From the NCBI GenBank assembly GCA_963693365.1, contig CAVNZM010000019.1:71272-135271 (forward strand): DNA of 64,000 bases, in the 5' to 3' direction. Source of the DNA: Amoebidium appalachense (taxonomy: Eukaryota > Protista > Ichthyosporea). Positions 10,224-59,438 of this stretch are shown here, in pieces. Each line of letters starts with the position of its first letter. Position 1 is the first letter of the stretch. Position numbers and translations under genes: made by a program. The notes under the pieces are model-generated. The model was not told where the DNA came from and made no database searches. It saw only the letters and a list, made by a program, of their open reading frames with translations.

Positions 10224-13200
10224 ATGGACCGGTCCCGTAGACCGGGGTATGTTGTGGTGGACACTCAGTCCAATAAAGTCGTGGCCGATGCCTGGCCAAG
10301 TGCCGAGAATCCTGGCCGCTTCTTTCTAGAATCCCGAGCCGATGACCCTTTCCCCCTCGCACAGCTGGTGCAGGACCCGCGTCACCCGTCATACAACACC
10401 GGCACCGATAGGCAGGCCAGGGATGGCAATCTGAACCTGCGATTCCGTGTCCGTGATCCCATGTACGCACCCGCCCCGCCTACACAAACCCCACCGTCCC
10501 GATCCGAGACCTGGTGGGAGGAGCTTGCAGGCAAGGACCTGACCCAAGAACCCCTCGATGATGCCCGTGTAACTGCCGAGAACGTTCAGGGGATACTGAG
10601 CAAGGCGTATGTTCGCACAAGCACGCCGCGCCTGGTCAAGCTCGAGGGTGTCACGGACTCTAGGGGCCACGCGCTTTTCGCCAAGGAGGTGGAAAATCGG
10701 AAGACACGCCACCCCACGACACCGGACCATCCCGAGCGCATCCGAATGGCGTATGCCGCCCTTGCGGAGGCCCAGCGCATAGCTGGAAAAAACGTAAGGG
10801 ATTCCCAGAAAGCAAAGGAGGGCAAAGCGCCGGAAGACTCCGATGATCCCGGAGAGCCCAACATGCTCGAGGCGCTCGCCCTGATGGTGCCCGGGCTGCC
10901 ACGGCCTGAGTTTGTGGAAGGAGTCCACCGCGAGGACGACGAACGGGCCTACCCCTACAAGCACGCGCTCCAGACACTCATCGCCGAGCGTGCAAAGCTG
11001 GCCAAGGAGCTGCGCGCAGCCGGTACCGATCGTGCGACCATGCGGCAGGCCCTCAAGGAACTGACCATGAGTGTTGCGCGCGACCTTTCAGGGCAGGAGT
11101 ACTACGGCCGTGTCCAGCACATCCTGCGGGCCCTTGCCGATGACCAGGATCTTGACCTTCGAGATGGTAAGCGTATTCACCTCGGGTCACACGCCCCCCC
11201 CGGAGCCACCAGCATCGATGATGAAAGGGAGATGCACAAACGCTTCTACGCCGATCTCGGCCGGCCTGAGCTCTCAGAAACCCGTTTCGATGACGCCCGC
11301 AGCCGTCTTGTTGCCAATGCCGTTTCGACCCGCCGAAGAGCAGAGGCGCCCACACCCACCACTGCCGACTCCACCGCCCAGGAACTTGCCACGGTTGCAC
11401 ATGCGCTGGGCGTGAGCCCGGACAACGCTCGCACGGCCATCGCCGCCTGGGCCGACCGGAAGCGGGAGCAGCTTGCGGGCCTGTACACCGCCGGGAGGCC
11501 CCGGTCGCCGGGCACCGCCGTCAACACAACATCCGACATTACGGACTCGGTGTGCGGGATCGTGTTTGTGGATCCGCACATCTCCAAGCACTTCCGGCCG
11601 ATGACGTACCTGGTCGTCAGGCTCGACCGCTTTGTCCCGCGCGCAATGCTCGTGGCGATGCACGTCATCGAGCACACGGGCAGGCCCGTTGTGTACAAGT
11701 CTAAGGCCACGGTCGCGGGGTTCTACCCACCCCAGCCCGGGGGAAACCCCCCTCTGGCGCTGTACCAGCTGGAGCGCCAGCGGCTGATGCCCTTGGAGTC
11801 CACAGGTGATCTTCTCAACGTCGACGCGCCTGACAGCCCTTCGCCTGTCCGCTCCGTGGTCTATGAACCCCTGCCATCCCGAAGCACCGTGGCATCGAAA
11901 GGCTCCTTCACGCTGAGGCTCCTCCCCGACAACAAGGTCGCCCTGGGGGCAGAGGAGGCCCTGTGGGTGGTGGGCCCCGGGGGCGCCCGCCTGCTGCTGG
12001 TGCCGGGGGGGCGTTGGTACGGGGAGGAACCCCTCGCACAGCCCCTGCCCGCAGACGTCGAAGTGCACACGCTGAGAACTGCCGAACAGCCCGTAGGACG
12101 CCTGGGCCGTGGGAAGGCATACACGCAGGACATCCGCGATGCCATCCTGCTTGCGCACCTGCGGGACGAGAGGCTCACGGACACCGCACAGAGGCTCAAG
12201 GTCAGCACGCAGACCGTGCGGCGGGTAATAGCACGTGCCCTCAAGCACGGCGAGTTCAGCAGCCGGCACGGCACCAACCTCGCAAGGGCCCATGAGAAAT
12301 CCACCAAGCTGACGGACACACAGAAGATCGTGCTCTACGAGCTCACGACCAAGGTACCCAACCTGACCAGCGAGAAGCTCATGGCCGCCTACAACGCACT
12401 GCCTGGCCTGCCCGAATCCGAGCGCATGAACGTGTCGGTGTCCACGCTCAACAAGTGGCGCAAGCGGCTTGGGCTGACGTACCGCCGTGGGGAGGGCGAC
12501 CCGACAAACACCTTTGTAAGGTCCGTGGCTGCCGCCACCCAGTACTTTGAGGTCGAGCGCTTGCCACACCTGCAGGACAACCGCCAGAATCTGCTTTTCA
12601 TCGACGAGGCCTCCGTGTACCTGGATGAGACCCCTGGCCGCGTGTGGGGGCACCGCGGCTCGCATCACAAAACCCCCAAGCCCAAGCTGCGCGGCATCGG
12701 CACAAAGCTGCTGATTTCCGTGGGGTTCCCCAAGGCGGACAACGATGGAAACATGCGGGCCGTGGTCAACTACCTGATTCTCAGTCCTCGGCCATCCGAC
12801 GACCCGCTGTTCAACTACCGGCCTCTCGCCCCCCACGGCCGCGAGCCCCAAGCCGAGCTTTCCAACGAAAGCCTGGTGCCTGACGAGCTTGACGGTCGTG
12901 CGTTCTACGTGTTCTTGGAGTACGTCCTGGGGGCCGACCCACGCACGAACGGCGCAATCCTGTGCATGGACAACGCCCCCGTGCACAACACCAAGGAAAA
13001 CTTGCCGGACATCAGGCAGCTCGCCGTGAGCAAGCATTGGCGCTTCCAGTGGCTCCCCCCCTACAACTCCAAGTACAACGTCGCCGAGTTGGCCATCGGC
13101 TTTGTCAAGCAGCACGTGCGCTCCCACTACCCCAAGACCTACTACCACCTTCGCAAGCTGATCCAGGACGGCTGCTCACTGATCGAGCGGAACCCGGACT

Positions 13201-14636
13201 ACATCGTCAACTGGATGAAGAAGTGCGGCTATGGTCTGCCCATCAACATCACCCGCAACGCCAACATCCGCAAGGACCGCATGGGCTTCTTTGCACCAGA
13301 AGGCACCATCTACACTCGCGTTGTCAAGATCACAAACCCCCAGGACAAACCCCTCAAGTGGCCCGATAACCCGAACTGGCCACGGTCCCAGCTGCGCCGC
13401 CTGCGCAACAGCATACTGGAGAACCCCGCGTGCTTTATCAGCCACGCCGGCGCCCTGTGGCGGCTGACCGAAACGGGACGCACGGCCGTCATCGATGCCC
13501 TCAACAGGGGGCACGCCACCACCGACCTGGCGCGTGCGTACACGCGCACCGCCCCCACCACCGGAGATCCCCGATGGCAGCTGTTCAGCACGGACCCAAA
13601 GGCCTGGCAGCGGAAGGAGCTGGTAGCCACACAGCGTCCTGCCAAGCAGAAGCCTGTGAAGCCCCAGGCCCCAGCCACCCCTGTGCTTCCAGAGGTCCTC
13701 ACGTCCAATCCCGCGGTCCTCCAGGCCGCCCGAGACAGGGCGGATAAAGTGCTGGCGGCCCTCAACGAGAAACTGAAGGCCGAACTGCACGAGAGCATGA
13801 AAGTCCGCGATGATCTGGACCATCTGCGGAGCAAAGCGGGCCGCGTGAGTGCTACGGACAACATAAACCCTATGTTTGCGGCCATATACGACAAGCGTGT
13901 CAGCACAAGAGCAAAAGAAGCCGCGAAGGAGAAGGAAAAGGAAAAGGTCCCCGACCCGCCCCAATCTGCGCCCGACCCGAACCAGGCCATCCACCAGCGC
14001 GAGTACTTGAACCCTCAGGTCCCTATGGACCTGGATTCTTACAACCCCCTGACCCCCGCGAGTTTGGACTCTTACAACCCCATGACCCCCATGAGTTTGG
14101 ACCCGCCGACGCCTGCACCGCCTCCTCGATCTCCCCGGAAGCGTACGCGGTCTGAAGACCAGGATGAGGTCTCCGGCCCGGGCGGTGGGGCCAAGCGGTC
14201 GCGCACTGAGCAGCCCCCGGAAGGTCAAAGCGTTTTGGGTACAGCCTACAGCCAGATGTGGTCTCCAGGGAGAGCTCATCCCGGACCGAGGCGTATCCTG
14301 CCACGGCCCGCAATCCCGCTGCAGCCACTGTCCTTTGTCCCATCCACGAACACGTTGGGTTCGCCCGGGACTCCCTTCCCGCACATGCCATCCCCCGAGC
14401 AGCTCCGGTTTAACACACAGGCGCAGGCAATTTCCGCCAGGCCCCCGCTGAGCCATGCCTACCTGATACCGCCCCCGCCCTCGCCGTTCCCCAACCCGCA
14501 GTCGCAGATGTCCACGCCCGTAAATAATTTCACCTGGCACTATGCCATTCGCCAAGCGCAAGCTCAAACGGTTCGGCCTCCTCCGCCTGACTGGCAACCG
14601 CAACCTCCAGCGCATTTTCAGCGCCGTGATGCGTAA
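10224..14636 (+). CDS. 1470-aa protein containing an IS630/Tc1-mariner-type HTH + DDE transposase/integrase domain
   Basis: HTH (TAQRLKVSTQTVRRVI; VSVSTLNKWRKRLGLTYRR); catalytic FIDEAS, CMDNAPVH, WLPPYNSKYNVAE (DD38E); long unique N-term and Pro-rich C-term. Confidence 0.85.
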   Translation: MDRSRRPGYVVVDTQSNKVVADAWPSAENPGRFFLESRADDPFPLAQLVQDPRHPSYNTGTDRQARDGNLNLRFRVRDPMYAPAPPTQTPPSRSETWWEELAGKDLTQEPLDDARVTAENVQGILSKAYVRTSTPRLVKLEGVTDSRGHALFAKEVENRKTRHPTTPDHPERIRMAYAALAEAQRIAGKNVRDSQKAKEGKAPEDSDDPGEPNMLEALALMVPGLPRPEFVEGVHREDDERAYPYKHALQTLIAERAKLAKELRAAGTDRATMRQALKELTMSVARDLSGQEYYGRVQHILRALADDQDLDLRDGKRIHLGSHAPPGATSIDDEREMHKRFYADLGRPELSETRFDDARSRLVANAVSTRRRAEAPTPTTADSTAQELATVAHALGVSPDNARTAIAAWADRKREQLAGLYTAGRPRSPGTAVNTTSDITDSVCGIVFVDPHISKHFRPMTYLVVRLDRFVPRAMLVAMHVIEHTGRPVVYKSKATVAGFYPPQPGGNPPLALYQLERQRLMPLESTGDLLNVDAPDSPSPVRSVVYEPLPSRSTVASKGSFTLRLLPDNKVALGAEEALWVVGPGGARLLLVPGGRWYGEEPLAQPLPADVEVHTLRTAEQPVGRLGRGKAYTQDIRDAILLAHLRDERLTDTAQRLKVSTQTVRRVIARALKHGEFSSRHGTNLARAHEKSTKLTDTQKIVLYELTTKVPNLTSEKLMAAYNALPGLPESERMNVSVSTLNKWRKRLGLTYRRGEGDPTNTFVRSVAAATQYFEVERLPHLQDNRQNLLFIDEASVYLDETPGRVWGHRGSHHKTPKPKLRGIGTKLLISVGFPKADNDGNMRAVVNYLILSPRPSDDPLFNYRPLAPHGREPQAELSNESLVPDELDGRAFYVFLEYVLGADPRTNGAILCMDNAPVHNTKENLPDIRQLAVSKHWRFQWLPPYNSKYNVAELAIGFVKQHVRSHYPKTYYHLRKLIQDGCSLIERNPDYIVNWMKKCGYGLPINITRNANIRKDRMGFFAPEGTIYTRVVKITNPQDKPLKWPDNPNWPRSQLRRLRNSILENPACFISHAGALWRLTETGRTAVIDALNRGHATTDLARAYTRTAPTTGDPRWQLFSTDPKAWQRKELVATQRPAKQKPVKPQAPATPVLPEVLTSNPAVLQAARDRADKVLAALNEKLKAELHESMKVRDDLDHLRSKAGRVSATDNINPMFAAIYDKRVSTRAKEAAKEKEKEKVPDPPQSAPDPNQAIHQREYLNPQVPMDLDSYNPLTPASLDSYNPMTPMSLDPPTPAPPPRSPRKRTRSEDQDEVSGPGGGAKRSRTEQPPEGQSVLGTAYSQMWSPGRAHPGPRRILPRPAIPLQPLSFVPSTNTLGSPGTPFPHMPSPEQLRFNTQAQAISARPPLSHAYLIPPPPSPFPNPQSQMSTPVNNFTWHYAIRQAQAQTVRPPPPDWQPQPPAHFQRRDA

Positions 14637-15676: not shown

Positions 15677-15934
15677 ATGAGTCTGTACAACTCGGTCAAC
15701 TTCAACGTCGACAACCCCCTGGACGCCCTGTTCCCGCCCATCACCACCGACGTGCAGCGGCATCCAGGCCGCGTGGCGCGCACACACGGTGGTCCAGGCA
15801 TAGGCTACCTACGTGGGGCTACCCAGCCCGGGGGGCGCTGGTTCTCGCGTGACCCCGTGCTCAGGCGCCTTGACTTCATCGTGCTGCTGCTGCTGCTGAT
15901 CCTGGCGCTGGAAATCACAAAGGGGGGTTTGTAG
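15677..15934 (+). CDS. Small protein with C-terminal TM helix
   Basis: ATG 15677 with upstream ATTTT motif; FIVLLLLLILAL. Confidence 0.55.
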   Translation: MSLYNSVNFNVDNPLDALFPPITTDVQRHPGRVARTHGGPGIGYLRGATQPGGRWFSRDPVLRRLDFIVLLLLLILALEITKGGL

Positions 15935-16145: not shown

Positions 16146-17486
16146 ATGGCACGGTACAACCCCCCGCCCTATTCCACTCCCGTCATCGGGCCCACCTGGA
16201 AGCCCGCTCCTGGCAATGAGGCGCGTGTCGACACCTCGTCCGTGCCCGACTGGCCCGGGGTGCGCCCGTTCTACGCGCCCGACGGGCAGAGGGTGCTCAC
16301 GTGGCTCAGCAAGTTCGACGGGCACGTGTTTTTCAACGCCGGGTACTCGGCGGGCAAGGGGGCTGAGGAGGCGGGGGTGAAGAAGAATCCCATGGATTGG
16401 AAGAAGGACAACACACGTAAAATCGCGGATGTGGTATCATTGATAAACAAAGAGAGGACAGTAGGACAGCTCCTACTCTCCTCTGATTGGCTGATTCGTT
16501 CAACTTTTGCTAACATCAAGAAGCTCCCTACAGTTTCTCAACCCGATAACTCTGTTGTATGTGCATTTGCAACTCATGGCCTGACACCCACCCTCGAGAT
16601 GTTTCGTGGCACCTGGATGGCTTTCGAGCTGACCGCCCCCTTTCTGCGCTACTGCTTTCCCGACCTGCGCCAGTTCTGGGACGGGGTGATGGTCAAGTCG
16701 CACCTGGGCCAGATGGACTTCTTCCCCGAGTTGATTCGCATTGCCGACCAGGGACGAGGTGATGGATGCAGGACTCGGTCCGTGACCATCGACATGAACG
16801 AGGGGTCCCGGAAGCGTGAGCGAGAAGAGGACGCCGAGTCGGCAGTGGTCAAACGAAGCACACTGGATGCCATGCTCGATCCGGATCGCTGGTTCAAACC
16901 CGGGGTTGATTTTGACACGGCCATGAAGCAGCTGCACCACTTTGTGGTTACTGTACATCGCGATTTCTGTACCAATGACAACCCCGAAGCGCTCGCCGCT
17001 GTGAAGCGCGCCGAGGAGGCTGAGCGTACCGAGAAAGCCAAACAGGACACAATACAGCGGGGCATCGACTCCACGCTTGCCATGGTCAAGGCTGTGCGCG
17101 AGATGAAGGCCGAGCTCAAGGGACTGGACGTGCACTTTGTGGCCTGGCGGCAGCTGAACTTCGAGTGGTCTCTCAAGGCGGCGGCAGGGGCGTGTGTGTA
17201 CGCACTGCACATCGACGGCTACATCAAGATTGGACACACAGGGAACTCTCTATTCGAACGCTACAAGTATGACCTCTGGTCTCACGACATGAAGGAGCTT
17301 ATCATCCTGTGCATGCCCCACCGCAACAAGAAGGAGGCCGAGCAGTTCGAGAAACTGGTGCAGAACCAACTGAAGCCGGTGAGGTGTGCAGTTGGGAACA
17401 AGCGGGAGATGTTTGCCGCGGACTATGTACGCGTCTCAAATGCGTTCAAGGAAGTTTACGGAGAGGATGATATTCGGCTGGTGTGA
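16146..17486 (+). CDS. KilA-N domain protein with C-terminal GIY-YIG/T5orf172-like domain
   Basis: DGHVFFNAG...RGTWMAFELTAPFLRYCFPDL (KilA-N); CVYAL..YIKIGHT...ER...EKLV...REMF; TATA at about 16106. Confidence 0.75.
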   Translation: MARYNPPPYSTPVIGPTWKPAPGNEARVDTSSVPDWPGVRPFYAPDGQRVLTWLSKFDGHVFFNAGYSAGKGAEEAGVKKNPMDWKKDNTRKIADVVSLINKERTVGQLLLSSDWLIRSTFANIKKLPTVSQPDNSVVCAFATHGLTPTLEMFRGTWMAFELTAPFLRYCFPDLRQFWDGVMVKSHLGQMDFFPELIRIADQGRGDGCRTRSVTIDMNEGSRKREREEDAESAVVKRSTLDAMLDPDRWFKPGVDFDTAMKQLHHFVVTVHRDFCTNDNPEALAAVKRAEEAERTEKAKQDTIQRGIDSTLAMVKAVREMKAELKGLDVHFVAWRQLNFEWSLKAAAGACVYALHIDGYIKIGHTGNSLFERYKYDLWSHDMKELIILCMPHRNKKEAEQFEKLVQNQLKPVRCAVGNKREMFAADYVRVSNAFKEVYGEDDIRLV

Positions 17487-19599: not shown

Positions 19600-20166
19600 A
19601 TGCCGATGCGCTTCTATGTCGAATGGCACCAGTATGCCCTCCCCGTGACCGGATACAAGAGCTGGTACGAGTGCGTGTACGACTCGGTTGACGCCGCCGC
19701 CGCGCTCGAGAGCATGCCGCGGCCGGACCGCGAGGAGACCATGATCTCGCTCAAGAGCCTGCTGGTGGAGAACAGCTACTCGCTGGGCAAGTTCCTGCTG
19801 CGCGCGCTCAACAGCTTCACGGGCATCCAGTTCAGCCTGTTCTCCAAGCTGCTGATCTCCGACAGCCCCGGCGAGCTCATGGAGCTGCAGAGGCTCGTGA
19901 GCAAGGTCGAGGCCGGAGCCGTGGTTATTGCGTTTGTGGAGAACGAGGGGTCGCTCATGTCGTTCGTGGTCAAGAAGGAGTCGGACGAGGCCGTGTTTAT
20001 TGTGGCGCTCGACCGGTCGAGGCCGTACAACGTGGGGCACCGGGCGTTTGTGGTGCTGCTGGCCAACGCGCTCCTGCATCCGAACAGGCCGATTGAGCTG
20101 TCCGATGATATCGACCTGGACGGCATCACGGCGGCCATCAGGGAGAAGCGCGTGCAGTGCCAGTAG
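19600..20166 (+). CDS. Hypothetical viral protein
   Basis: Strong GC3 bias from ATG 19600; upstream ATTATC...CCCCTACTCA-ATG motif. Confidence 0.6.
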   Translation: MPMRFYVEWHQYALPVTGYKSWYECVYDSVDAAAALESMPRPDREETMISLKSLLVENSYSLGKFLLRALNSFTGIQFSLFSKLLISDSPGELMELQRLVSKVEAGAVVIAFVENEGSLMSFVVKKESDEAVFIVALDRSRPYNVGHRAFVVLLANALLHPNRPIELSDDIDLDGITAAIREKRVQCQ

Positions 20167-26599: not shown

Positions 26600-28669
26600 T
26601 TATTTCAACCGCAGCATGACAGTGTACTCCCCCGTTATGGGCGTGCCATGCTCGTCCTCGATCGACACCCCGATGGTGCGGATGGAACCACAGCCCACCA
26701 ACGACGTGTAGATCGGCATGACGGGCTCGTACACATCGTTCACCGCCTTCTGTGTCGGGACCACGGCCAGCGCGCGCAGCCCCCGCACGTTGCCCTTGAC
26801 CCGGGTGTTGTTGACGTCCAGGTGCACAAACAGTCGCTTGGGCGGTGTCTCACGGGTGTACGGGATTGCCTGCAGCATGCTGGTGGCGTGCCCGAACGGC
26901 CCAGGCGATATTGTACCCTGCTGCCCCCAGGGAGGGACCAGGAGCACAGGACGATCGACAAAGGGGTCCTTGCTGCACACGTTGTTCTGCAGCCCCAGAG
27001 ACCGGGCAGCAGGGCCGGAGAACGAGAAGGTGATGCTTCTGGTGCTGAAGAGTAGCGCGTAGGACAGCCTCGCGCTGGCTTTGAAATACGCAAAAAAGGG
27101 TCTCAATGATATCACAATCCGTCCGCGAAACATGTGAGTGTAGTTATGGGGGTCCATCTGGATGTTGAAGAGGAGTCTGCGCCAGGCACCGAGGTCGACC
27201 TCACGGGGGAAAACCTGTAGATATACTGCGGCCAGTTCTACGGTCTCGATCATGATATCATCGTAGCTGTCGAGACGCTCATACGTAGAAAAGGGTGGTG
27301 GGGGATTGACATTGACAATGGCATCAGAAAGCTGCTGGACACTCCGCACAGAAAAGTGATACAACGGGTACGGTTCCGCGTCGGCGTCGTCGAGTGGGTC
27401 TTGGTAAATGGATGAAAGGAACTTGTCCGGTTCAAACAGGTTTGGCCGCAGATCTGTGGGGATGCTGAATGGAATAGTGAGGCCGTGTACGTTGGTAACC
27501 AAGAAGTTTGCTTTGATATAGGGGTCAGCCTCTGTTGAACCGAATAGGACCCCGTTCTGTTCGTAGTTTGTGTGGCTGACAACGACGCGTATAAAAACCT
27601 GAGACTCGACCATGTAGAAAAGAGCCCTTGATACCAGGGTTTCGTCCCGTGAGGAGATGGCCAGCGCCACCTGCAAGGCCTGCCATACTGGGGCTGGCCA
27701 TAGCGCCCAGTGGTCCCGGTGCTGAAAGTCCGAGTCAGGAAGAACCTCGGTTTCTTTCAGTGCATACAAGAAGTCGTACTCATAAACATCCCTTGGAATT
27801 GTGCCCTTGACCAGACTGGTCGGATCGAGGACGGCATTGGGCTCGTAAAGTAAGAGCCTTTCGCCATACGATGCCTTGTGCGGAAAAATGAGCAGCGACG
27901 AACCCGGTTCATCAATCAGTTCAACATCTGGAAGTGTTTGTGACGTAAAGCGATACACAACAGCCGCGGCAGATTTTTCGGGTATGGTGGTGTCTGTGGT
28001 CCCAACAAGTCCGCCCACGACAAGAATGGCATTCGGGTCTTGGTACTGCATACGCCTTAACTGAGCAACTAATGCCATGGGGCCTTCTAGGTCATAGCGT
28101 ACATACATTGGCGCGTTGCCTACAAGGGCGCTCCCACGCAGCGCATAGCCGTGCCCAACAACCGTAGGAACAGCGTTGGATAGGCCGAGGTTTTTAGCAC
28201 ACGGTCTGCTGTGATTCAATGTAGTCTCCAGCATCTTGACAAGATCATTTAATTCATATGGGCCGTGGTCCAGTTTGATTTCCTTCGAATACACCTCCCC
28301 CCTATTTCCAGGCGCATGTGCAACGTGTCCGTAGAAGGCCCGATAGTGCACAGGTCGTGGACGGTCATGTGCTCCAATGTACAGGAGTCCCGAGCATCTA
28401 GGTTTGTGTCTTGGGAAAGAACAGAGGTCGGCGCACCGGCATTGCACAGGGCAACACTGTCATAGCGGGTCTCCTCGGAAGATTGCGGGGGGTTCCCCAT
28501 GACATTGAGATCGCGCCGAACACGGCCCTGCCCCCCCCCCGTCGCGCTGCCCAAGGACCATAAGATCGCGCTGATTAGGGGGCTGCCCGGGTGGGTAGCG
28601 CTGGTCGCGCTGGCCAAGGGCTTCCAGGGCATGCAGCTGGCGCTGAATATTTTGTTGGGCTATGCTCAT
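26600..28669 (-). CDS. Penton/minor capsid (single jelly-roll)-like protein with large insertion; two homopolymer frameshifts
   Basis: C-term PKRLFVHLDV...LAVVP...PIYTSL...IRTIGVSIEDEHGTPI...VMLRLK; N-part IKLDHGPYELNDLVKMLETTLN; reading frames join at G-runs near 28300 and 28535. Confidence 0.6.
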
Positions 28670-41019: not shown

Positions 41020-42556
41020 CTACATGCAGACACTGGCATCTTGTGTTGATCTGCGGGACCCAGACTGTTTGCGCCCACGGTTACGCCTCCCCCCCGCTGC
41101 CCTAGCCCTTTTCGGCCTGGGGACTACCTCAAGCGTCACACCCTCGACCGTCAGCGGCTTGATGCCCGGAAACTGGCGCTCCATCATGGCACGCAGGTTG
41201 CCGTAACCATGGGTCGCTAGAATGTGTGGCATGTTGTCACCCATCCACATCTCCGTGTTGCTTATGACCGTGAACGCCTGGCGTGCCGTGATCTCCGTGC
41301 AGTAGCGGACAGGCGTGCCCCACGCCTCGGCACGCAGTTTGATGGCGTTCTGGATGGCACCGCGCGCTGTGAGCGTGTTTACAGTGCGCCGGGTGCACGC
41401 CACCAGCACGTCCACGTTGAGCACGCTGTTAGTGAACTCCTGCACCAGCTCAATGGCCCCCTTGGTCTCGCCGTTAAACAGCGCACCGACGATGCTGATG
41501 GGCAGGTTGCTTAGGCGTGCACGGAGGTGCGGGTAGCCGTTGAGCGTGGACTTGTCTGGATCGGTGGGGAGCACGCGTGGGTTGATGGTATTGGGATCGG
41601 AGTCGAACTGCTCCATCAGGGCCTGGTTGACACGGGAGCGCTCAGCGATGGTCTGGTTGGCCTGGGCAATGGTCTGGTTAGCTTGTGCCAGCATGAGGGA
41701 CCTCTCGCGTAGCATGGTGTCCTTCTCGCGCATGGTGGCGTCGTACACGGCGATCTGCTTTTCATAACCATCCTTCACAAGAGCAAGGGCCTGGGCCTGG
41801 CCTTCCTGCATCTCGGTGAAGGTGCGCTTGAGCTCGCGAATGGTGTTGTCCTTCTCCTCGATGATAGGCTTGACGGTGCTGTCGAAGAAGCTGCGCATGG
41901 CATCGAGGAAGCCGTTCGAAGGGTCCGCCCGGGCAGCGCGCACCTCATCCATGTCGATGGCCATCTTGCTGGTGGTGGCCCCGTTGTAGTTGTCGCAGAT
42001 GTCGATGACGTCTGCCAGCACCGTGTAGTCGCCCGTGAACATGCGCGAGAGCAGTGCGTCCGTGTGCACGGCAAAGTCCGTCGAGACGTAGCGGGCAAGC
42101 GCCGGGAACAGCGCGATGTGCACGAAGGTGCCGCGCAGCGCCGGGTCGCCGGTCTTCTTCTTGGCATTCGAATCATCAATGACGTCATCGATGCGCAGTG
42201 GACCAATGGGAGGAATGTTGGGAATTCCCAACTTTCCTTTGATTGGTCCATTGATCTTATCCAGCACCCTACCAACCAAACCAAAATTTGCGCTCTTTCC
42301 ACCAGGTGATTTTTTTCTCGGCCCCATCCCCCGCCTTCTCGGTGTTGTATTCGCGCCCCACGTTGCACAGCATGGTGCCGTTGAAGTAGACGTGCCCGTT
42401 GGGGTAGGTGGTGGTCACGGTCAGCACCTTGCAGCCGAAGTCCATGGCGGGCGGGGCGCGCACCTCCTTGAACGCAGGGTAGGCAGGGGTTGCCGGCTGT
42501 AGGGAGGCAGCGACCACCTCCTCCCTGGGCGCAGCGACGTTCATGTCGAACTCCAT
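41020..42556 (-). CDS. KilA-N domain + coiled-coil protein, copy A (one frameshift near 42280)
   Basis: NGHVYFNGTMLC...RGTFVHIALFPALARYVSTDFAV; ORFs 42269-42556 and 41020-42327 join. Confidence 0.75.
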
Positions 42557-43156
42557 GTTTGCGTAGGTTGTTTGTTCGTTCGGTACTTGAAAGCAGAATG
42601 AAGCATCCAGGCGCGCATTGGCTTTATATAGTGGCGGGGTGGCTCACAAGTAGGTTGTTGCGCATTGGCGCATTGCCTCCGCCCATTCGTTCCTTACGTC
42701 TCCAATCACAGCCAGCCTGTGCTTTCTGGAAATTTCCAGCTTCCAGTGCGTAAGGTGGCGCTTGTTCGCTGTCGCCCTCCAATCACAGCCAGCCTGTACT
42801 TTCTGGAATTTTCCAGCTTCCTATGCGTAAGGTGGCGCTTGTTCGCTGTCGCCCTTTTCCAACCTCATCCTACCAAGAAATGACGATGCAACACCTTCGC
42901 GAACCTTCCTACTCCCGCTCCCAAAACGCACGTATGCAACCCGCAATATGGCAAAAGACATATTATAATGTATGAATGTGCCAAGTCTTTATAATTGCCA
43001 AGTCTTTATAATTGCCAAGTCTTTATTTGCAAAGTCTTTATTTGCCTTTTTACAGTCATATATCGTCCTTCTTATATTGCCAAATGTCTATGTATTGATG
43101 CAAGTTTTAGGTAAACATGAACACAAATGAATGTCTGGATCCCCCCCTTCCCCCCA

Positions 43157-44595
43157 CTACATGCTTTGTTTCTCTGCCTCTGCGCACTGCGCACGTCTGT
43201 CGAATTTCTTGGGCACAGCAGTGCGCCTCACACGTCTAGTACGTGGTTTGGGGACGAGCTCAAGCTCTTCCTCTATGTCTAGGGGCTTGATGCCCGGAAA
43301 CTCCTTCTCAAACAGAACCCTAGTACGGTAGAAACTGCACGTCTGGCTGATCTCGGGCATCTTCTCGGCAAACCATGCCTCCGTGTTGTACACCACCGTG
43401 TAGGCCATCCGTGCGGTGATCTCGGTGCAGTACTTCACCTTGCGGCCCCACGAGGCCCCCGCTCGCAGCTTGATGGCGCCCGCCAGCACCGACCTCGCCA
43501 TCACCGTGTTCACGCTGTCCTCGACGACGTGTCCCAGCACCTGTACGTTGAGTATCCCCTCGACAAACTGCTGGTACAGAGTGGTCGGGCCCACCGTGCT
43601 GCCCTTGAACAGTGCCGCCACGATGCTGTTGCCGAGGTTGAGCAGGCGCACGCGCAGGTGGGGGTACCCGTCCAGCGTGCAGCCGTCGGGGCTGCTGGGC
43701 AACACGCGCTTGTTGAGGGTGTTGGGGTCGCTCTCGAACTGCTCCATGAGGGCCACGTTGATCTGTGTGGCCTGCTGCAGCATCAGCGTCTTCTGCTTGT
43801 CCAGCTCCTTGTGCTGCATCACCAGCTCCTTGCTCTCACGCACGGCCATGTTCAGCAGGTCGATGGTGAGGTTCTTATCCTTGATGGTGTCGTTCTTCTC
43901 CTTGAGCAGCGGCATGAACTTGCTGTCGAAGAACGACGTCAGCATGCCCAGCATCTGCTCACCCGTGTCCGCCCGGGCCGCACGCACCTCGTCCATGTCG
44001 ATGGCCATCTTGCTGGTGGTGGCCCCGTTGTAGCTGTCGCAGATGTCGATGACATCCGCCAGCACCGTGTAGTCGCCCGTGAACATGCGCGAGAGCAGTG
44101 CGTCCGTGTGCACGGCAAAGTCGGTGGAGACGTAGCGGGCAAGCGCCGGGAACAGCGCGATGTGAACGAAGGTGCCGCGCAGCGCCGGGTCGCCGGTCTT
44201 CTTCTTGGCATTGGTGGTGTCGATGACGTCATCGATGCGCAGTTGACCAATGGGAGGAAAGTCATTTCAAGCCCTTTCCTCTGATTGGCTGTTTGTTGAT
44301 CTTGTCGACGATGTTAAACCAGTGTTACCTCTGCTCCAAATCGACACCTTCTTCTCGCGCACCCATCCCCCGCCTTCTCGGTGTTGTACTCGCGCCCCAC
44401 GTTGCACAGCATGGTGCCGTTGAAGTAGACGTGCCCGTTGGGGTAGGTGGTGGTCACGGTCAGCACCCTGTCGCCGAAGTCCATGGCGGGCGGGGCGCGC
44501 ACCTCCTTGAACGCGGGGTAGGCAGGGGTTGCCGGGTGTGGGGAGGCAGCGACCACCTCGTCCTTGGGCGCAGCGACGTTCATGTCGAACTCCAT
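43157..44595 (-). CDS. KilA-N domain + coiled-coil protein, copy B (several frameshifts at 44265-44360)
   Basis: Tandem paralog of copy A, with near-identical KilA-N flanks and promoter. Confidence 0.7.
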
Positions 44596-45017
44596 GTTTG
44601 CGTAGGTTGTTTGTTCGTTCGGTACTTGATAGCAGAATGAAGCATCCAGGCGCACATTAGGTTTATATAGTGGCGGGGTGGCTCACAAGTAGGTTGCTTG
44701 CACTGAATCCTGGCGCATTGCCTCCGCCCATTCGTTCCTTACGTCTCCAATCACAGCCAGCCTGTGCTTTCTGGAATTTTCCAGCTTCCAGTGCGTATGG
44801 TGGCGCTTATTCGCTGACGCCCTCCAATCACAGCCAGCCTGTGCTTTCTGGAATTTTCCAGCTTCCAGTGCGTAAGGTGGCGCTTGTTCGCTGTCGCCCT
44901 TTTCCAACCTCATCCTACCAAGAAATGACGATGCAACACCTTCGCGAACATTCCTACTCCCGCTCCCAAAACGCACGTATGCAACACGCAGAGGCCAAAT
45001 AATCCCGCTGTGCATGC

Positions 45018-45224
45018 ATGGAGTCTGGCAACCGGGTCTGGACGGTGCTTCTGCTTGCGTTTATTGCCTACTCCGTGTGGAGGGAGCTGGGTGTTCCGGA
45101 AAATGACGACACCTTCTGGATCAGCAATGTGGAGGCCATGGCACCTCGCGAGCCGGTCATCGACAATTCGAGCGGAAAGGAGGTCATCTTTCGCACCTAC
45201 CGCTACCTGCCGCCGGGTACATAA
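45018..45224 (+). CDS. Small protein with N-terminal TM/signal anchor
   Basis: VWTVLLLAFIAYSVW; AAATAATC upstream. Confidence 0.5.
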   Translation: MESGNRVWTVLLLAFIAYSVWRELGVPENDDTFWISNVEAMAPREPVIDNSSGKEVIFRTYRYLPPGT

Positions 45225-46358: not shown

Positions 46359-47602
46359 TTAGGCCATAAACTTGTCCAGGGTGGTCTGTGCGTACTTGTC
46401 CAGCTGGTCACCAAACACAAGCTCCAGCTCGGCCTTCTGCACCAGGCAGACGCCCATGCGCGCAAAAACACGAAGCACGGCATAGAGCTGGTTGTAGGTC
46501 AGGTGGGTGACCTTGGGCACACCGTGGAAGGTGTAGGCCGCCTTGCAGAGTGCCGTGTACAGGTTGATGTGCGAGCGGTACACAGCCTGGTCGGGATCCA
46601 CGTTCATGTGCGACTTGATGAGCCAGTTCCAGTAGGCGGGGTCGTACAGGTGCTCGAACCCCTCGTGGGAGCGCCACAGCAGCACGGCAGCGTCGTGGAA
46701 CACCTTGCGCGCCAGCTCCCGCCCGTAGTCCGTCTCCATGCAGCGGCTGTTGGGCGAGGTGCCGGGGGGCAGGGACACGATGCGCTGGGGGTGGTTGTCG
46801 TCGCCCTCGTAGATGGCAAGGCGCTCGTTGGCAGAGTCCAGCAGCTCGGCCGTCTCCGTGTACCACTGCTCGACCTTCTCGAGGCGCGCCTCAGCAGCAG
46901 CGGTGGTTGCACTCAGAGCAGCTATGGCGGCCTCCTTCTGAGCTGCGGACAAACGAGCGAATGCCTCGGTAACGTCAAAGGCCCAGTCACGGACAGTGTG
47001 GCCCAGCAGGGTACTTGTTGATGCAGACGCCATGCGGAAGCCCTTGGGTGTCAGCTTGTGGTCAAGTGGTGCCGCTCCACCAGTCTTGGGTGTCTGCATG
47101 CCAATTGTGTGTCAGTACGCATACCCAGGGCACCTATAATATGTAGGAAAGCAAGTCTGCGCTTGTGACGTCATTATGACGTAGGCGGCATGATGCCGCC
47201 TACGTCATAACAGGAAAAATGACGTCATTATGACGTATCTCAGGCTCTCAAGATGTCGAGCTAGCAGAACAACTCAACCACACCAAAATAGAAACTCACC
47301 TCCAGTTGTGCAATGAAAAAATTCCCTTCAGTAACATAGCGTGGCACCCCGTTGCGGCCCTTGAACATGGCGCGTACAAAGTCCTTGTAGTTGTCATATC
47401 CCAGCAACTTGTGCACGGCGCGCCCTGAGATGGTCTCGTCGCTGTCGAACAGGAATGGGTCAAGGAAGCGCAACATCTTTGCTACCACATCGTCCCCCAC
47501 GGTGCCCAGCAGCTGCTCAAGCTCGGGGGAGATGGGGGGGAAACCGGCCTCGCGGGCGCCAGCAATGTTGAGGCGCTCGTAGATGGCATAGGTGGAAGCC
47601 AT
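46359..47602 (-). CDS. AntA/MSV199-like DNA-binding protein, copy 1, two exons (47602-47300, 47093-46359)
   Basis: Exon 1 ISGRAVHKLLGYDNYKDFVRAM; exon 2 GGAAPLDHKLTPKGFRMAS..T.LGHTVRDWAFDV. Confidence 0.7.
47094..47299 (-). other. Spliceosomal intron, 206 nt, phase 0
   Basis: GAG|GTGAGT donor, TACTGAC branch point, GCAG acceptor; same position as the intron in the paralog. Confidence 0.85.
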
Positions 47603-49230: not shown

Positions 49231-49249
49231 TTGTGTGTGTGCGTGTGTG

Positions 49250-50070
49250 TGTGTGTGTGCATAGCGCTAGAGTTGTGTAGCGCTGAAAGCGAATTATGAA
49301 GGCGCTCCCATCAGTGAGTTGGGTTGCACTCACCGACTATCCAATCAAATCACTGCAATGACTTCATCGGCAATTTCATTATTCAAACTGTCGGGATGCG
49401 CGCGATTTGATTGGTGAGTTGATGAGTTGCTACAGAAACCGACTTTTCATACCCCACACACCACACACACATACATCTATATATATCATACACATATACA
49501 TACAAGCGTACATATTTTTATACATATGTATACTTATATACACATATATTTATATATATATATACATTTCTTTGTATTCTAATTTTTATTTGTATACACT
49601 GACCTTTTCATATTCTTCTAACCTTCTTCCAAAAGGATCATGTAGTGATACTACATCGGATGACTGGGTTGCTATACTTGGAAGACTACTTCAATGTTCA
49701 TTTAATATAAATATATAAATAAATATTTACAAAAGTGAAGTTCATATGTCTTTTATTTGATTTTAATATATATATATATATTTATATTTATATAGATACC
49801 TACATATGCAAGAATGATACTGTAACATACGTATACATGTAGGTGCATGGTGTGTGGTGTGTGGGGTATGGAAAGTCGGTTTCTGTAGCAACTCATCAAC
49901 TCACCAATCAAATCGCGCGCATCCCGACAGTTTGAATAATGAAATTGCCGATGAAGTCATTGCAGTGATTTGATTGGATAGTCGGTGAGTGCAACCCAAC
50001 TCACTGATGGGAGCGCCTTCATAATTCGCTTTCAGCGCTACACAACTCTAGCGCTATGCACACACACACA
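49250..50070. repeat. Long inverted repeat (~220-bp arms) around an AT-rich ~380-bp spacer
   Basis: 49250-49468 is the near-perfect reverse complement of 49850-50070. Confidence 0.92.
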
Positions 50071-50123
50071 CACACACCACACACACACACACACACACTA
50101 TTTGTAAGAATAAACACTGATGC

Positions 50124-52988: not shown

Positions 52989-55057
52989 ATGGCTTCCACC
53001 TACGCCATCTACGAGCGCCTCAACATTGCCGGTGCCAAAGAGGCCGGCTTCCCTCCCATCTCCCCCGAGCTCGAGCGCCTGCTGGGCACCGTGGGCGACG
53101 ACGTGGTGGTCAAGGTGCTGCGCTTCCTCGACCCGTTCCTGCTGGACAGCACCGAGACCATCTCCGGGCGCGCCGTGTTCCGCCTGCTGGGGTACGGCAG
53201 CTACAACGAGTTTGTGAGAGCCATGTTCAAGGGGCGGAATGGGTCGCCTGGTTTTGTCCCGGCTGGAAGCTACCGTGTTGTTGAGATGGAGGTATGAACA
53301 TCCCCTCTGATGCAAGTGCAACCGTTGCTAGTAGGTCGAGCTTGTTTTTAGATGAGGTTGTCAAAATAGTTGATACCTGCATTGGATCACAATATCCTGG
53401 TTCTACAGTCACAGCCACATTGTGTTCCATGAGAGACTCTATGACAAACGAGTAGAACGAGTTGGTGCTTTACCAAACAAGTGGACGCGTTTACGATGAC
53501 CAGGGTAGTACTTCCCATAGACTAGGATCTGTCCGAGAGCATGTTTCCATGAGCGGACATGTTTCACTTCGATTACATCACTATCTGTCAACAAGTCTAT
53601 TTCTCCAGCAGGCACTGTTCTTTTCACGCCCCCTTCCCTTTTCTGTAGATTTGCACATACCTTCCTCTCTGACTGCTCCTTTCCGAGTGTCTGTTCGAGC
53701 CTTTTAGCCAGTTTGCTGTAAGCACGATCAGTTAGAAAAAACGATTTGCCTGGCATGCCCCTGCTGCCTGTGCGTACTCTTGTAACTCTGTAATCTACAT
53801 TCTCTGCCCAGCCCAGTCGTCTTATGGTCCGTATTATATTCTCAGTCATTCTATTTCTTGAGAGCCCATACTTGCGCGCTATGGTATCCGCGCTCATTTG
53901 AATACTCACCATACTCTTTGTATAGAAAAAATCGGTGACTTCACAATGACGTATCATAATGACGTCACAGCCACACGGGCTGACACGCGTCATAATGACG
54001 TCACAGCCACACGGGCTGACACGGATTAACTGCCCCCTCCCCCCCCTCCAACACAGACTCCCAAGTCCGGTGGTTCAGCCCCCATCGACCACCACATGAC
54101 GCCCAAAGGTTTTCGCATGGCGTCATCTTCTACCAACACTCTGTTGGGCCACACTGTGCGCCTGTGGGCCTTTGATGTTGCCGAGGCCTTTGCCCGTCTG
54201 GCTGTCAACCGCAAGGACGAGGCCGTTGCTGCCCTGCGCGCCACCCTTGCTGCGGCCGAAGCCCGTGCTGCCGAGGCTGCCGCCGAGCGCAACCAGGCCA
54301 TGGGCGAGAAAGACGGCTGCCGTTGGAGGCCGCCCAGGCCGAGGCACTCGCCACCCTCGCTGCCGCTCTCGCCCGCGTGAAGCTCGAACCACTCACCCTC
54401 CCGACCCGCATGCCTCTCACAACCGGCGGCACGTACACGGACAACCATAAGTTCAAGCGCCTGACGCGCGCGTTCGCGTATGTGTGCGTGGACACGCTGT
54501 ACGGCGAAGGCGTGCGCTGCGCCAGCACGTACACGGGCATGATCATGGCCACCACGGGCGTGTGCTTTGTGTTCCAGTCGGGGGAGATTTCCAACATCAT
54601 CGCCACCACCGGGCTGCAGAAGGCCATGAAGGAGCGCATCCGGCTGTGGACCGGCGAGGAGCCCAAGTACTCGACCGACATGACCACGCAGCAGCTGTAC
54701 ACCTTTGTCTACAACTACACGCGCTGGTACGTCGAGTACTGCAAGGCGCCGGTGCTGCGCCAGTCGACCATCAACAACGCGGACACGGGCGCTGCCGAGT
54801 ACGAGGTGCACGTCGAGCTGGCGTCGTGGCTGGAGGCCATCCAGGACAAGTTCCCCGACATCGAGCCGCTGGAGCTCGGGCGCACCGTCAGCCTCAACGA
54901 GCCCCTGGTGGAGCGCGGCGAGCAGCTCAAGGGGCAGACCCAGCTGGACGTGTATGTGCAGCGCGGGCGGCTGGGGCGGAAGCGCAAGGTCGCCCGCCTG
55001 CAGAAGCCCGAGGGCCCCGTTGATGTTGTGGTGATTGCGGACAGTGATAGTGAGTGA
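52989..55057 (+). CDS. AntA/MSV199-like DNA-binding protein, copy 2, two exons (52989-53291, 54057-55057; frameshift near 54320)
   Basis: Exon 1 is 303 nt as in copy 1; exon 2 starts TPKSGGSAPIDHHMTPKGFRMAS. Confidence 0.7.
53292..54056 (+). other. Spliceosomal intron, 765 nt, phase 0, containing a nested antisense gene
   Basis: GAG|GTATGA donor, GCTGAC/ATTAAC branch candidates, C-rich tract, ACACAG acceptor. Confidence 0.8.
53439..53912 (-). CDS. Intron-nested protein: AntA-like DNA-binding N-term + PD-(D/E)xK nuclease domain
   Basis: ENVDY...RGMPGKSFFLT, then PAGEIDLLTDSDVIEVK...WKHALGQILVYG.YYP..KRVHLF; may continue by frameshift into ORF 53430-53227. Confidence 0.8.
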   Translation of the reverse strand: MVSIQMSADTIARKYGLSRNRMTENIIRTIRRLGWAENVDYRVTRVRTGSRGMPGKSFFLTDRAYSKLAKRLEQTLGKEQSERKVCANLQKREGGVKRTVPAGEIDLLTDSDVIEVKHVRSWKHALGQILVYGKYYPGHRKRVHLFGKAPTRSTRLS

Positions 55058-56154: not shown

Positions 56155-56927
56155 CAGAGCGCTGACATAGGATCGACACACACTCAGAGCGCTGAGATAG
56201 GATCGTCGTTTATGACGTCATTATGACGTCACCCACTGTCGGCAACGTTGGTGCTGTGGCGCCCTGGACCCAGCATGTGGCTCACAAGGGGGTGAGGCTA
56301 GCTCCTTCATGACTCGTGGTCATGTTGGCAAGATTAGGAAAGGATGGTAGGTTCAACTGTATCTGCATGAAATTATGTGGGAACATGTATGTCTGTATAT
56401 ATGGGAAATAAACAATAAAAATCATGATAACATAGTGGGTTCATATGTGAAGCGCGAATTTACTGGATATCGAACTTGTGCTCTTTGGCTTAAGACTTCA
56501 GTGAACATTCTATTCATATCTGATTGGTTAATTGTGATTGGTTGTCTGCGATTGGTCGAGCATCGATTTCAAAGAAGCCCTTGGTGATGAAATGTTTGAT
56601 GGGTAAAAGGTTGTGTTTAACTCGATTAAATCAAAGAAGGTTAAACCATCCGAGAAACTGTAGGTACTACGTCAATGTTTTGATGTTGCATTTGTAAACA
56701 TTGAGTGCATGAGGGGCTCAGAAACATCCTGAGTCCTTTTGCACTACTCTGGGACTAAGATTACCAAAAAGCCAATCCAGCGTGGCTGCCAATAGAATCC
56801 ACTCAAATAACAAAGTCTGACATCCAATCATATGTCGCGAAATTGCCAAGCAAGTATATAAGGTCACATCCACTCGGCCGATGCCATTGCATTCTACAAA
56901 CACAGATACTCAAGCAACACAGGCAAA

Positions 56928-57669
56928 ATGTACACGACACATGGCGCTGCGCCTGTCTCATACAGCACCTTCACGTTTCCACCCACCCCACAACCCGACC
57001 TGGGTATCATACACAGTACCGACTTCGTTCCGCTGACCGCCGACGATTTTTCTGCTTTTGACAACCAACTAGGTGATGGCTCCATGCTCTATGCCCCCAC
57101 CCCGACGACAGCCACGAGCCACGGCCAGAACCACGTCTTCGACTTCGACATGGTCTGCGGCGAGACAATCCCCCTCTCCCCGGCGGCGCGTCCTGTTCCC
57201 ACACATCTGCATCTGCAAGCGGTCGCCACTCAAGCCCCCACGCTACCACCCACCACAACCACGCCAGCCACAACATGGTTTGACCAGCTCGGGTCTGCCG
57301 AGAACCACGATTCTGACACGAGACAATCAAAGCGCCCGCGCGCTAACATTTCAATGACCAGAAAGCCACCTGGTGAAATCAAAGCGATTGCCACAGCTAG
57401 TGATTGGAGGCGCCATCTTGCACCCCAGCCCGTTTCGCAGCTGTTGAAACAGGCGTTCGACAGACTTCACCCGCTGTGCTTTGTACCGTTCGTCAACTGC
57501 ACGCTCCCGTATGCCGCGAGCAGGGACAACCTCTTCTACCTGGACGCTGGTAGTATCTGTGCGCTTCTCGGCTACAGGGACATCAATGAGATCCGGGACC
57601 GTCTGGACCAGGCCAAAATCGCCAACGTCGTCGGCGGTGTGCCAAGCACAGACCCGGTAGGCAGCCCCC

Positions 57670-57700
<31 letters not shown>

Positions 57701-58665
57701 ACACACACGCACACACACGCACACACACGCACACACAAAAAGCTAATTGTTGCTCGGCACATTATCAACACCCCTACTAAATGGTGGATCCGGGCACCAT
57801 AGTGGCCGTGGCGGCGGTAGCTTTTTGCGTGGGTATGTTCTTTCTCAGTATCCTTGACTATCTCTTTCCCGTGTTCTCGGATCCGAAGGGTGACCCACCC
57901 CCACCATACTCAATCCATGCTGATCTTTGATGATCCCTACAGGGTACCCCACACTACTGCAAAAAGGGTAACATCATACTGGTCTCGCCGGCTGCGTTTC
58001 TTCACCTGACCACCCAGGTCTTGTACGAGTCCCCCCTGGCCCTCGATTTTCTGGGGTGGTTTAACAGCGCCCGCAGCAAGGCGCTGCACTTGCACGAAAC
58101 CCGGCTCTACGAGAAGACCCGTGGCGCGCGCCCTTCCACCACCCCTCTGGATGCCACCCGCCACATTCGCGCTACCTTTGTCGGTTTCCTGGTGGCCACA
58201 CTCAGCTCGACATCCGTGCTTGACGTCCACAGCCTGGTGACCATCCTTGAAAAGGTGGCCAATGTGCAAGTCACTTCACGCTTCAAGACCCGCAACATCT
58301 GCGCCCCGCACGCCGAGGCGCTGGTTTTCAAGGTGCTTGCCCAGCGCATCAATATAGACACGGGCGTTTCGATAACGTCTGCGCTCGACATCAACACGTT
58401 GCACCTCTACACGTTTCTCTCGCGCGCCCTGGAGGCTCTGGACGTTGACGTGCACCATCCACACGGCGTCCCAGCCAGCAGCACCTTCATGGACCCCCAG
58501 CTGCGCGACCTGGGGAAGCTGGGTCGGTCCCTGGAGAAGGCCTTTGCCGGCATACAGCAGTTGCCCATGGAGCCCAAGTCCTTCTTCTATGCCATGCAGG
58601 AGCGCCCGGACACCCCGGCCGGACACGAAGAGTGTGCATGCTTCAGGATGGATCGGAGTCTTTAG
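56928..58665 (+). CDS. BRO-N domain protein, two exons (56928-57656, 57943-58665)
   Basis: FYLDAGSICALLGYRDINEIR...STDP|GTPHY...ILVSPAAFLHL...SPLALDFLGWF; TATATAA at about 56856. Confidence 0.7.
57657..57942 (+). other. Spliceosomal intron, 286 nt, phase 0, containing (CA)n and a nested micro-ORF
   Basis: CCG|GTAGGC donor, GCTGAT branch candidate, CCCTACAG acceptor; restores the BRO-N frame. Confidence 0.7.
57781..57930 (+). CDS. Intron-nested 49-aa microprotein with TM helix and PPxY motif
   Basis: MVDPGTIVAVAAVAFCVGMFFLSILDYLFPVFSDPKGDPPPPYSIHADL; upstream ATTATC...CCCCTACTAA-ATG. Confidence 0.55.
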   Translation: MVDPGTIVAVAAVAFCVGMFFLSILDYLFPVFSDPKGDPPPPYSIHADL

Positions 58666-58972
58666 GTTGGGCGGACATGTACGGATGGATGCGTCGCACG
58701 AGTCCTGTGCACACGGGGCAGCGCCGTGCAAGCTTGCACGATTTGGAGTTGTTGGGGCACTTGTCCTGGGATACATACTTTTTTTTAGCCGGTTTGAGTG
58801 CGCTTGTGCATGTGGGTTTGGGCTTTGCTGCTTTTAGGTTCGGCATCGTAGGTGCAGCCGGTTTGAGTGCGCTTGTGCATGTGGGTTTGGGCTTTGCTGC
58901 TTTTAGGTTCGGCATCGTAGGTGCAGCCGGTTTGGGGTTTTGTGTTGGAGCCATGGCCTCTTCTGTTGGCAT
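58643..58972 (-). CDS. Small Lys/Pro-rich protein with a 23-aa (69-bp) tandem duplication
   Basis: KPAAPTMPNLKAAKPKPTCTSAL twice; Cys-rich tail. Confidence 0.45.
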   Translation of the reverse strand: MPTEEAMAPTQNPKPAAPTMPNLKAAKPKPTCTSALKPAAPTMPNLKAAKPKPTCTSALKPAKKKYVSQDKCPNNSKSCKLARRCPVCTGLVRRIHPYMSAQPKDSDPS

Positions 58973-59438
58973 TTCAGTCTTTATATACACCTACATAATC
59001 ATCAACAATAGCCACTAAACGTTGCGCGTTGTCTCACACTTGAGCTCCGACAGCCCCAATAACCCAATGCCTGCTTATCAAATGTGTCATAATCTTATCA
59101 TGTCACGTGATAAAAAGCTGACCAATCAGATCGTTTGACATCTGATCACCACCCTTTGATCGTTGAGGAGAAAGGGGGGTTTATCGATCTTGTCTGATTA
59201 AATCGCATTCCGTGGCGCGGCTTGCCATGTAAATATGTGTTTCATCAATAAACCCCACTGTTTTTGTCGCTTGCGGGAGATTTCCATGACGCGATGGCAT
59301 TTTTTAATTGAAGATTGTGTGACAGGCAAACAGTGTCACATGGACATCAACTCTCACTCCAATCGGGTTCGTTTGTTCACCTTTTCGTTTTTTCACCTTT
59401 CGCTCACAGCGATTTCTCTTCACCCACCCTTGCAAAAC

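Follow-up and report, generated by a model that had tools for sequence, protein, structure and literature searches.

Domain matches in the 64-kb window, by which we mean the whole stretch of DNA that was analysed, include an A32-type ATPase (Pox_A32, E=0.0014), PCNA, an ATP-dependent ligase and a fragment of a D5-like helicase (DUF5906). Further matches were obtained to a C5 DNA methyltransferase, genes with KilA-N and T5orf172 domains, polysaccharide lyase 14 and a DDE transposase fusion. The window is gene-dense, and long (CA)n tracts and locally duplicated segments lie between its genes. Neither a major capsid gene nor a polymerase gene was identified within it, no RNA polymerase gene was seen there, and an Rfam search returned one chance hit (E=0.97). 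The window is likely to represent a nucleocytovirus-type element that is integrated in a eukaryote and partly decayed. Giant endogenous viral elements of Amoebidium (PMC11244446) and punuivirus (10.64898/2026.10.09.758095) are likewise described, in the accessible portions of both accounts, as gene-dense, with an A32 ATPase, a D5 primase-helicase, a DNA methyltransferase, few introns, several diverged copies and partial decay. No intron-nested gene is reported in those portions of the two accounts (PMC11244446; 10.64898/2026.10.09.758095).

Within the window, a 1470-aa ORF (10224-14636, + strand) carries HTH and DDE_3 (Tc1/mariner-like) transposase domains in the middle of a much longer frame. 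A MITE-like unit at 49243-50075, in which 226-nt perfect inverted repeats flank an AT-rich core of 381 nt, interrupts a third copy of the gene family represented at 47602 and 52989. On the reverse strand, a tandem duplication of about 2.04 kb (41020-44990) holds two KilA-N-like genes, both with coding signal in two frames near the start. At 54096-55057 (+) the frame of the coding signal shifts near 54320, and this gene copy looks broken. The region 28669-26600 (-), which we take to be penton-like by resemblance, is fragmented into a 69-aa ORF, a 127-aa ORF that overlaps it in another frame and then a 544-aa ORF; this fragmentation is attributed to decay or sequencing error.

The locus of interest consists of an outer gene in two exons, separated by a predicted intron in which a micro-ORF lies on the same strand (Table 1). 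The intron was assessed by U2-type criteria, namely a GT donor, an AG acceptor, a CTRAY branch site 18-40 nt upstream and a frame that is kept, and the sequence offers a GTAGGC donor, CTGAT at -23, a TACAG acceptor and phase 0/0. The spacing of CTGAT resembles the branch spacing (-22) in the intron of the D5-helicase gene and in another intron at 47299-47094. In addition, the coding signal drops at the donor and returns just behind the acceptor. The end of exon 1 has a coding score of 19.6 bits over 57486-57686, exon 2 scores 57 bits with a GC3 of 0.78, and unspliced read-through from exon 1 enters the microsatellite, with a coding score of -10 bits. Since exon 2 is strongly coding but has its first in-frame Met only at codon 183, it needs an upstream exon. 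Four contig runs (library kind not on record, from one sample at most) pass through 57942 with no splice, and none of the public runs that contain the stretch is recorded as RNA. CTACTAA was considered as a branch point and rejected; its next base is A and not Y, and it is fixed directly before ATGs.

Table 1. Features of the outer gene, the predicted intron with its micro-ORF and the other predicted introns of the window (a slash marks an exon-intron boundary)
Feature	Positions	Strand	Details
TATA-like box TATATAAG	56855..56862	+	73 nt 5' of outer-gene ATG; putative host-type promoter
Exon 1 of outer gene	56928..57656	+	243 codons; end weakly like N-half of BRO-N
Predicted spliceosomal intron	57657..57942	+	286 nt; CCG/GTAGGC ... 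CCCTACAG/G; phase 0 at both flanks
Poly-C and (CA)n microsatellite	57665..57736	+	5' end of predicted intron
Start motif: CATTATC, spacer, CCCCTACTAA-ATG	57760..57783	+	predicted virus-type late promoter/initiator
Micro-ORF	57781..57930	+	49 aa; hydrophobic helix about residues 4-30, short polar tail
PPPPY (PPxY) codons	57895..57909	+	residues 39-43
Branch-point-like CTGAT	57920..57924	+	23 nt before AG; overlaps last micro-ORF codons
Exon 2 of outer gene	57943..58665	+	240 codons; strongly coding, first in-frame ATG is codon 183
Gene-carrying intron	53292..54056	+	predicted; 765 nt; GAG/GTATGA ... CACAG/; phase 0
Antisense nuclease-like ORF	53439-53993	-	inside intron 53292-54056
Canonical intron in D5-like helicase gene	39574-39778	+	205 nt; GTGAGA, CTAAC at -22, CATAG; phase 0

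The initial annotation had described this intron as splitting a BRO-N domain, a description that is not borne out by profile searches. The end of exon 1 matches Pfam Bro-N (PF02498) below the cutoff (E=0.2, 12.8 bits against a cutoff of 25.6) over profile positions 8-42 of 96. Exon 2 had no match in Pfam, the whole ORFs of the outer gene gave no hit to BRO-N, and the best that PHROG returned for exon 1 was phrog_5060 (E=0.06). A BRO-N profile was also built from 15 phage sequences seeded from a PF02498 search, after a first phage antirepressor had been discarded as a seed, being of another type by inspection. The local form of this profile gains nothing from splicing; the spliced form scored 9.5 bits vs 10.8 bits for exon 1 alone, 1083 of 2539 decoy acceptors scored as high, and exon 2 was not reported by the local profile of the C-half. 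A glocal BLOSUM test of exon 2 as the C-half of BRO-N was mildly positive, with only 50 of 2881 decoys as high. Exon 2 had no homologue in viral contigs, in metagenomes or, at longer and near lengths, in the protein collection; its best score against the Atlas was 0.81, which is lead level only, and its predicted fold was uninformative (pLDDT 36). Judged from these profile scores, the outer gene may at best be called BRO-like; it is a putative DNA-binding gene.

The micro-ORF itself, with its hydrophobic helix and PPPPY, is present on the sense strand just as had been noted at the outset. Its residues 7-25 give the best 19-residue Kyte-Doolittle mean, 2.75, and a single-sequence AlphaFold model of the product consists of one helix (residues 4-33, mean pLDDT 78); the prediction is a membrane protein that spans the membrane once. 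Among 5000 dinucleotide shuffles of the sequence behind the 57781 ATG, an ORF of at least 45 aa arose in 1316, a helix of at least 2.5 in 3 and a PPxY in 51, and an ORF together with a helix in none. Only one of the 2085 ATGs of the window combines ORF, helix and PPxY, and that one is 57781 itself. In its codon usage the micro-ORF scores as neutral (-0.7 bits, synonymous score -7.4, GC3 0.57); it ranks 24 overall among 210 short ORFs and 81 on synonymous usage. Conserved homologues, by which the initial annotation had proposed to check the frame, were found neither in the protein collection, viral contigs and metagenomes nor, at E<=0.001, in the viral fold library. The best score against the Atlas was 0.76, with no homologue, and family searches with the micro-ORF gave no nuclease domain and no family match.

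A further suggestion, that the PPPPY is a viral late (budding) domain, found no support. The tail of the micro-ORF product is acidic with a single Lys, and its charge pattern is ambiguous for topology; by the usual charge rule for membrane proteins, an acidic tail with one Lys does not place the PPxY in the cytosol. In addition, of the 24 longer coding stretches that were scanned in the window, 2 contain a PPxY as well. The T5orf172 gene begins, at 16146-16175 (+), with PPPYS, a motif that it has in common with the microprotein.

The micro-ORF is preceded by a start motif that recurs in the window. CCCCTACTAA-ATG occurs exactly at two sites, 57781 (+) and 28669 (-), and near matches were found at 19600 (one mismatch) and at 5101 and 26580 (polysaccharide-lyase gene), with two mismatches each; nine ATGs in all lie within three mismatches of CCCCTACTAA. 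The identity with 28669 and the near identity at 19600 and 5101, which had been pointed out from the sequence at the start, are therefore upheld. The description of 28669 as the start of a penton-like gene is not, since the ORF that begins at this ATG is 69 aa long, stops in frame at 28460 and is separate from the 544-aa ORF, whose frame it shares, and the penton label is without support in Pfam, PHROG or PDB. Another of the start-motif genes is called fibre-like, a label that we likewise assume from resemblance. Within two mismatches, the 10-mer CCCCTACTAA precedes 4 of 46 curated starts vs 2 of 2038 other ATGs, and no ATG among these 2038 comes as near to the curated starts as 57781; the figure is somewhat favourable, as the list of curated starts was compiled by the analyst and includes sites named in the initial annotation. 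A(T/A)(T/A)ATC stands about 20 nt upstream of 4 of the 46 curated starts vs 16 of the 2038 other ATGs.

Two classes of start can be described in the window. A CCCTACT-type motif stands before 5101, 19600, 20713 (A32 ATPase), 26580 and 28669, and a TATA box at none of these, while TATA boxes resembling that of the outer gene precede PCNA and eight other starts. Of 45 starts, 10 have a TATA box, 6 the CCCTACT-type motif and 0 both, counts that are descriptive and too few for significance. The starts of the TATA class lie at 9419, 16146, 17567, 23247, 42556, 44595, 47602, 52989 and 56928, and those of the CCCTACT class at 5101, 19600, 20713, 26580, 28669 and 57781. TAAATG overlaps the start at 57778, 28672, 26583 and 23250. 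Two small ORFs (45018-45224 and 15677-15934, both +) have good coding scores and a hydrophobic stretch each, and the one at 45018 has ATAATC about 20 nt upstream, as in the motif genes.

The arrangement resembles the poxvirus late promoter TAAAT(G/A), for which the accessible part of the source (PMC5294985) likewise gives an initiator that overlaps the start codon and an AT-rich element a short spacer upstream; however, the variants here read TCAATG and the spacer is C-rich. None of the five medusavirus upstream motifs given in the accessible part of that account (PMC8557863) matches the start motif. When matches to the motif were inspected in unrelated viral contigs (80 of 120 loci), a frame of 49 codons followed in only 5 of the 53 distinct contexts. 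None of 10 window proteins matched at the 80 motif loci, so that these motif matches are put down to chance.

Public runs hold a second copy of the locus. Runs X1, X11, X12 and X13, contig sets of about 1 million letters each whose library kind is not on record, were compared over 56500-59200; nearly all of this stretch is covered by them, and two divergent copies of it are present. Because the four sets are very small and yet cover the stretch with two copies, they appear to be enriched for the element. In X11 and X13, a diverged second copy is alignable from 57758, just ahead of the start motif, and not further upstream. Upstream of its alignable part the second copy ends again in a CA run, which suggests that the layout is kept. 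The figures for this copy derive from 40 of 93 differences, none of them within about 30 letters of an aligned end, and the substitution analysis used 38 of the 40, the remaining two being non-coding.

Among the 40 of 93 differences listed, the only gap in 57758-58485 is a 3-letter in-frame insertion within the micro-ORF. Four of the seven micro-ORF substitutions in the same list are synonymous vs 24% expected (p=0.06), and the other five frames give 1-2 of 7; the replacements listed are A>V, A>T and I>V. The frames of both exons are kept, with 5 of 13 and 8 of 17 of the listed codon changes synonymous, and no change among these 40 of 93 differences falls in the PPPPYS motif. The second copy thus backs the micro-ORF as a gene, weakly.

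The intron at 53292-54056 is probably the one that the initial annotation had counted as its first gene-carrying intron. The antisense ORF inside it has what we take to be a PD-(D/E)XK-like pattern, and its C-half matches Tox-REase-3, of the restriction-endonuclease fold, below the cutoff (E=0.13). When this ORF and the A32 ATPase were compared with viral contigs, no relative was found. The genes at 52989 (+) and 47602 (-) are paralogues, with identity blocks of 84% and 75% and phase-0 introns at the same position; the intron of the second paralogue (47299-47094, -) is 206 nt long and without a nested ORF. At the level of sequence, the proposal that nesting in introns recurs in this element holds, in that 53292-54056 carries an ORF missing from the paralogue's intron at the same position. 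The intron 53292-54056 would resemble a mirusvirus shintron, and its passenger appears to differ in kind from the microprotein.

Genes within viral introns are best known from mirusviruses. The accessible part of the mirusvirus account reports more than 2,000 genes in spliceosomal introns, including 334 nucleases and 271 MING-1, most of them unannotated, and it describes nucleocytoviruses as generally without spliceosomal introns, the exceptions being decaying endogenous elements, pandoraviruses and some chloroviruses (PMC12768974). Shintrons and MING-1, as that part presents them, are likewise cases in which a large DNA virus of eukaryotes carries a gene for a protein within a spliceosomal GT-AG intron (PMC12768974). 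However, in the cases characterised there, virion-morphogenesis genes of Mirusviricota harbour nucleases or MING-1 (PMC12768974), whereas the element described here is nucleocytovirus-like, its outer gene putatively DNA-binding and the nested product a 49-aa membrane-type protein with its own start motif. A shintron nests an HNH, GIY-YIG, VSR or PD-(D/E)XK nuclease, and 57657-57942 has none of these. A MING-1 intron lies in the terminase nuclease region of a mirusvirus, whereas the outer gene gave no terminase hit and the element has an A32-type ATPase. The word "transmembrane" is absent from the main text and the 10 word-searched supplementary files of the mirusvirus paper (PMC12768974). In the literature searched, this work is the only relevant precedent for nested genes in giant-virus introns (PMC12768974), and no non-nuclease micro-gene with its own promoter was found in a nucleocytovirus intron. 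Viral intron-harboured genes are already known from mirusviruses; what would be new here is a predicted membrane microprotein with its own start motif in a nucleocytovirus-like element.

The predicted product can also be compared with the herpesvirus proteins U24, UL42, ORF0 and UL56, which, in the accessible part of their account, are small single-pass membrane proteins with PPxY, as the micro-ORF product is predicted to be, and have little mutual similarity (PMC5849660). One membrane helix together with a PPxY, the combination that characterises such adaptors, is predicted for the micro-ORF. Nevertheless, the herpesvirus adaptors are described there as tail-anchored, with a C-terminal helix and the PY on the cytosolic N-side, and their binding has been shown (PMC5849660), whereas the putative micro-ORF product has an N-terminal helix and no sequence homology to them.

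The proposal that a real viral gene is hidden in the intron is favoured by the start-motif counts, the shuffles, the intron signals and, weakly, the second copy; against it stand the neutral codon usage and the lack of a homologue in the collections searched. On balance, we give somewhat better than an even chance to an architecture of a real intron with a real nested gene, in which 57781-57930 is likely to be a separately transcribed late gene of a nucleocytovirus-like element, on the same strand as the outer gene. The outer gene would be read from its TATA-type promoter by host polymerase II and then spliced, and splicing of the outer RNA would discard the nested frame along with the intron. 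A second promoter class, WWATC...CCCTACT(A/C)A-ATG, would initiate a shorter RNA inside the intron, with an initiator that overlaps the start codon as in the TAAATG late promoters of poxviruses. Since it has no upstream donor, the shorter RNA would stay unspliced, and it would be translated from 57781 with exon 2 as its 3' untranslated part. The branch-point bases would serve twice, as a splicing signal and as the last codons of the micro-ORF. In punuivirus, according to the accessible part of its account, introns are found together with host-like genes, and their association with late promoters of virus type is negative (10.64898/2026.10.09.758095), a split that fits the two-promoter layout proposed here.

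The last step of the proposed mechanism is the weakest. The PPxY tail may recruit a host ubiquitin ligase of Nedd4/Rsp5 type, and the protein might then steer membrane traffic or membrane supply in virion assembly, a role that need not be that of a late domain in budding. By analogy with herpesvirus U24/UL42/UL56, a role as a small Nedd4-family adaptor is tentative and, even given a real gene, rather unlikely; host lineages without WW-HECT ligases would void it. The combined reading, namely that of a nucleus-dependent nucleocytovirus with a late promoter-bearing membrane micro-gene in the intron of an early host-style gene, yielding two temporally separate proteins, with a branch point that doubles as coding sequence and a 49-aa minimal Nedd4-family adaptor as product, is doubtful in its entirety.

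Alternatively, the intron may be real and the micro-ORF untranslated, either as a chance frame or with the motif serving to give exon 2 an alternative first exon, in which the ATG, or the ATG and a short leader, is spliced to 57943. Neutral codon usage and the lack of homologues in the collections searched agree with an untranslated frame, and both the upstream start that exon 2 requires and six phase-0 GT sites in the micro-ORF (57784, 57802, 57808, 57817, 57829 and 57871) agree with an alternative first exon. However, these sites poorly fit the GTRAG/GTATG of the element's other introns, and the best donor, 57833 (GG/GTATGT), is out of phase, would leave only 26 aa and has its T altered in the second copy. 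An untranslated frame also has to face the 0 of 5000 shuffles with both ORF and helix and, among the 40 of 93 differences listed, a single indel that keeps the frame; we consider it quite unlikely. It is improbable that there is no intron at all, in which case either three units would stand in a row (a 272-aa gene whose tail derives from a microsatellite, then the micro-gene, then a downstream ORF that is decayed or lacks a start) or insertion of the micro-gene would have broken the outer gene. The four contig runs, whose library kind is not on record, show no 57656/57943 joint, the continuity of BRO-N is weak, and other genes of the element are broken, such as the penton-like region and the copy with a frame change near 54320. 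Against this, the splice signals (donor, acceptor and the branch at -23) all fit and phase 0 is found at either end, the coding signal ends at the donor and resumes past the acceptor, and both halves keep their frame in the second copy (40 of 93 differences). The hydrophobic segment as an extra exon of the outer gene, as the initial annotation had itself envisaged for refutation, is highly improbable. Inside the segment, five AG..GT combinations are in frame and stop-free, one of them 57821-57889 (69 nt), but none reads the micro-ORF frame, and an internal exon of the outer gene was rejected. Moreover, in the second copy 57821 is no longer preceded by AG (57819 A>G), and the strongest internal acceptor, 57848, runs straight into a phase-0 stop.

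A different alternative has the architecture in common with the preferred reading and departs from it in the last step only. The nested gene would be real and its product a plain small membrane protein of the virion or viral factory, the PPPPY being incidental to a C-rich genome; we regard this as a serious possibility, if one short of an even chance. The start motif is common to the fibre-like, lyase, penton-like and packaging genes, PPxY arose in 51 of the 5000 shuffles, PPPYS is also found at the T5orf172 start at 16146, and the topology is ambiguous. On the other side, cellular Nedd4 adaptors show a helix followed by a PY motif. A helix followed by PPPPYS is also the layout of the herpesvirus Nedd4 adaptors as given in the accessible part of that source (PMC5849660), and PPPPYS is unchanged among the 40 of 93 differences listed.

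If the nested late gene is real, intron-harboured viral genes would extend beyond the nucleases and MING-1 of mirusviruses to a non-mobile, separately regulated microprotein, and standard annotation would be overlooking genes in viral introns. The start motif would then be a candidate late-promoter motif for this virus group, usable for finding further hidden genes, and the 49-aa product a candidate for viral use of host ubiquitin ligases at membranes. Should the combined reading of a late adaptor gene within an early gene's intron be true, then, together with the nuclease intron at 53292-54056, introns of this element would be places where selfish as well as useful genes can settle.
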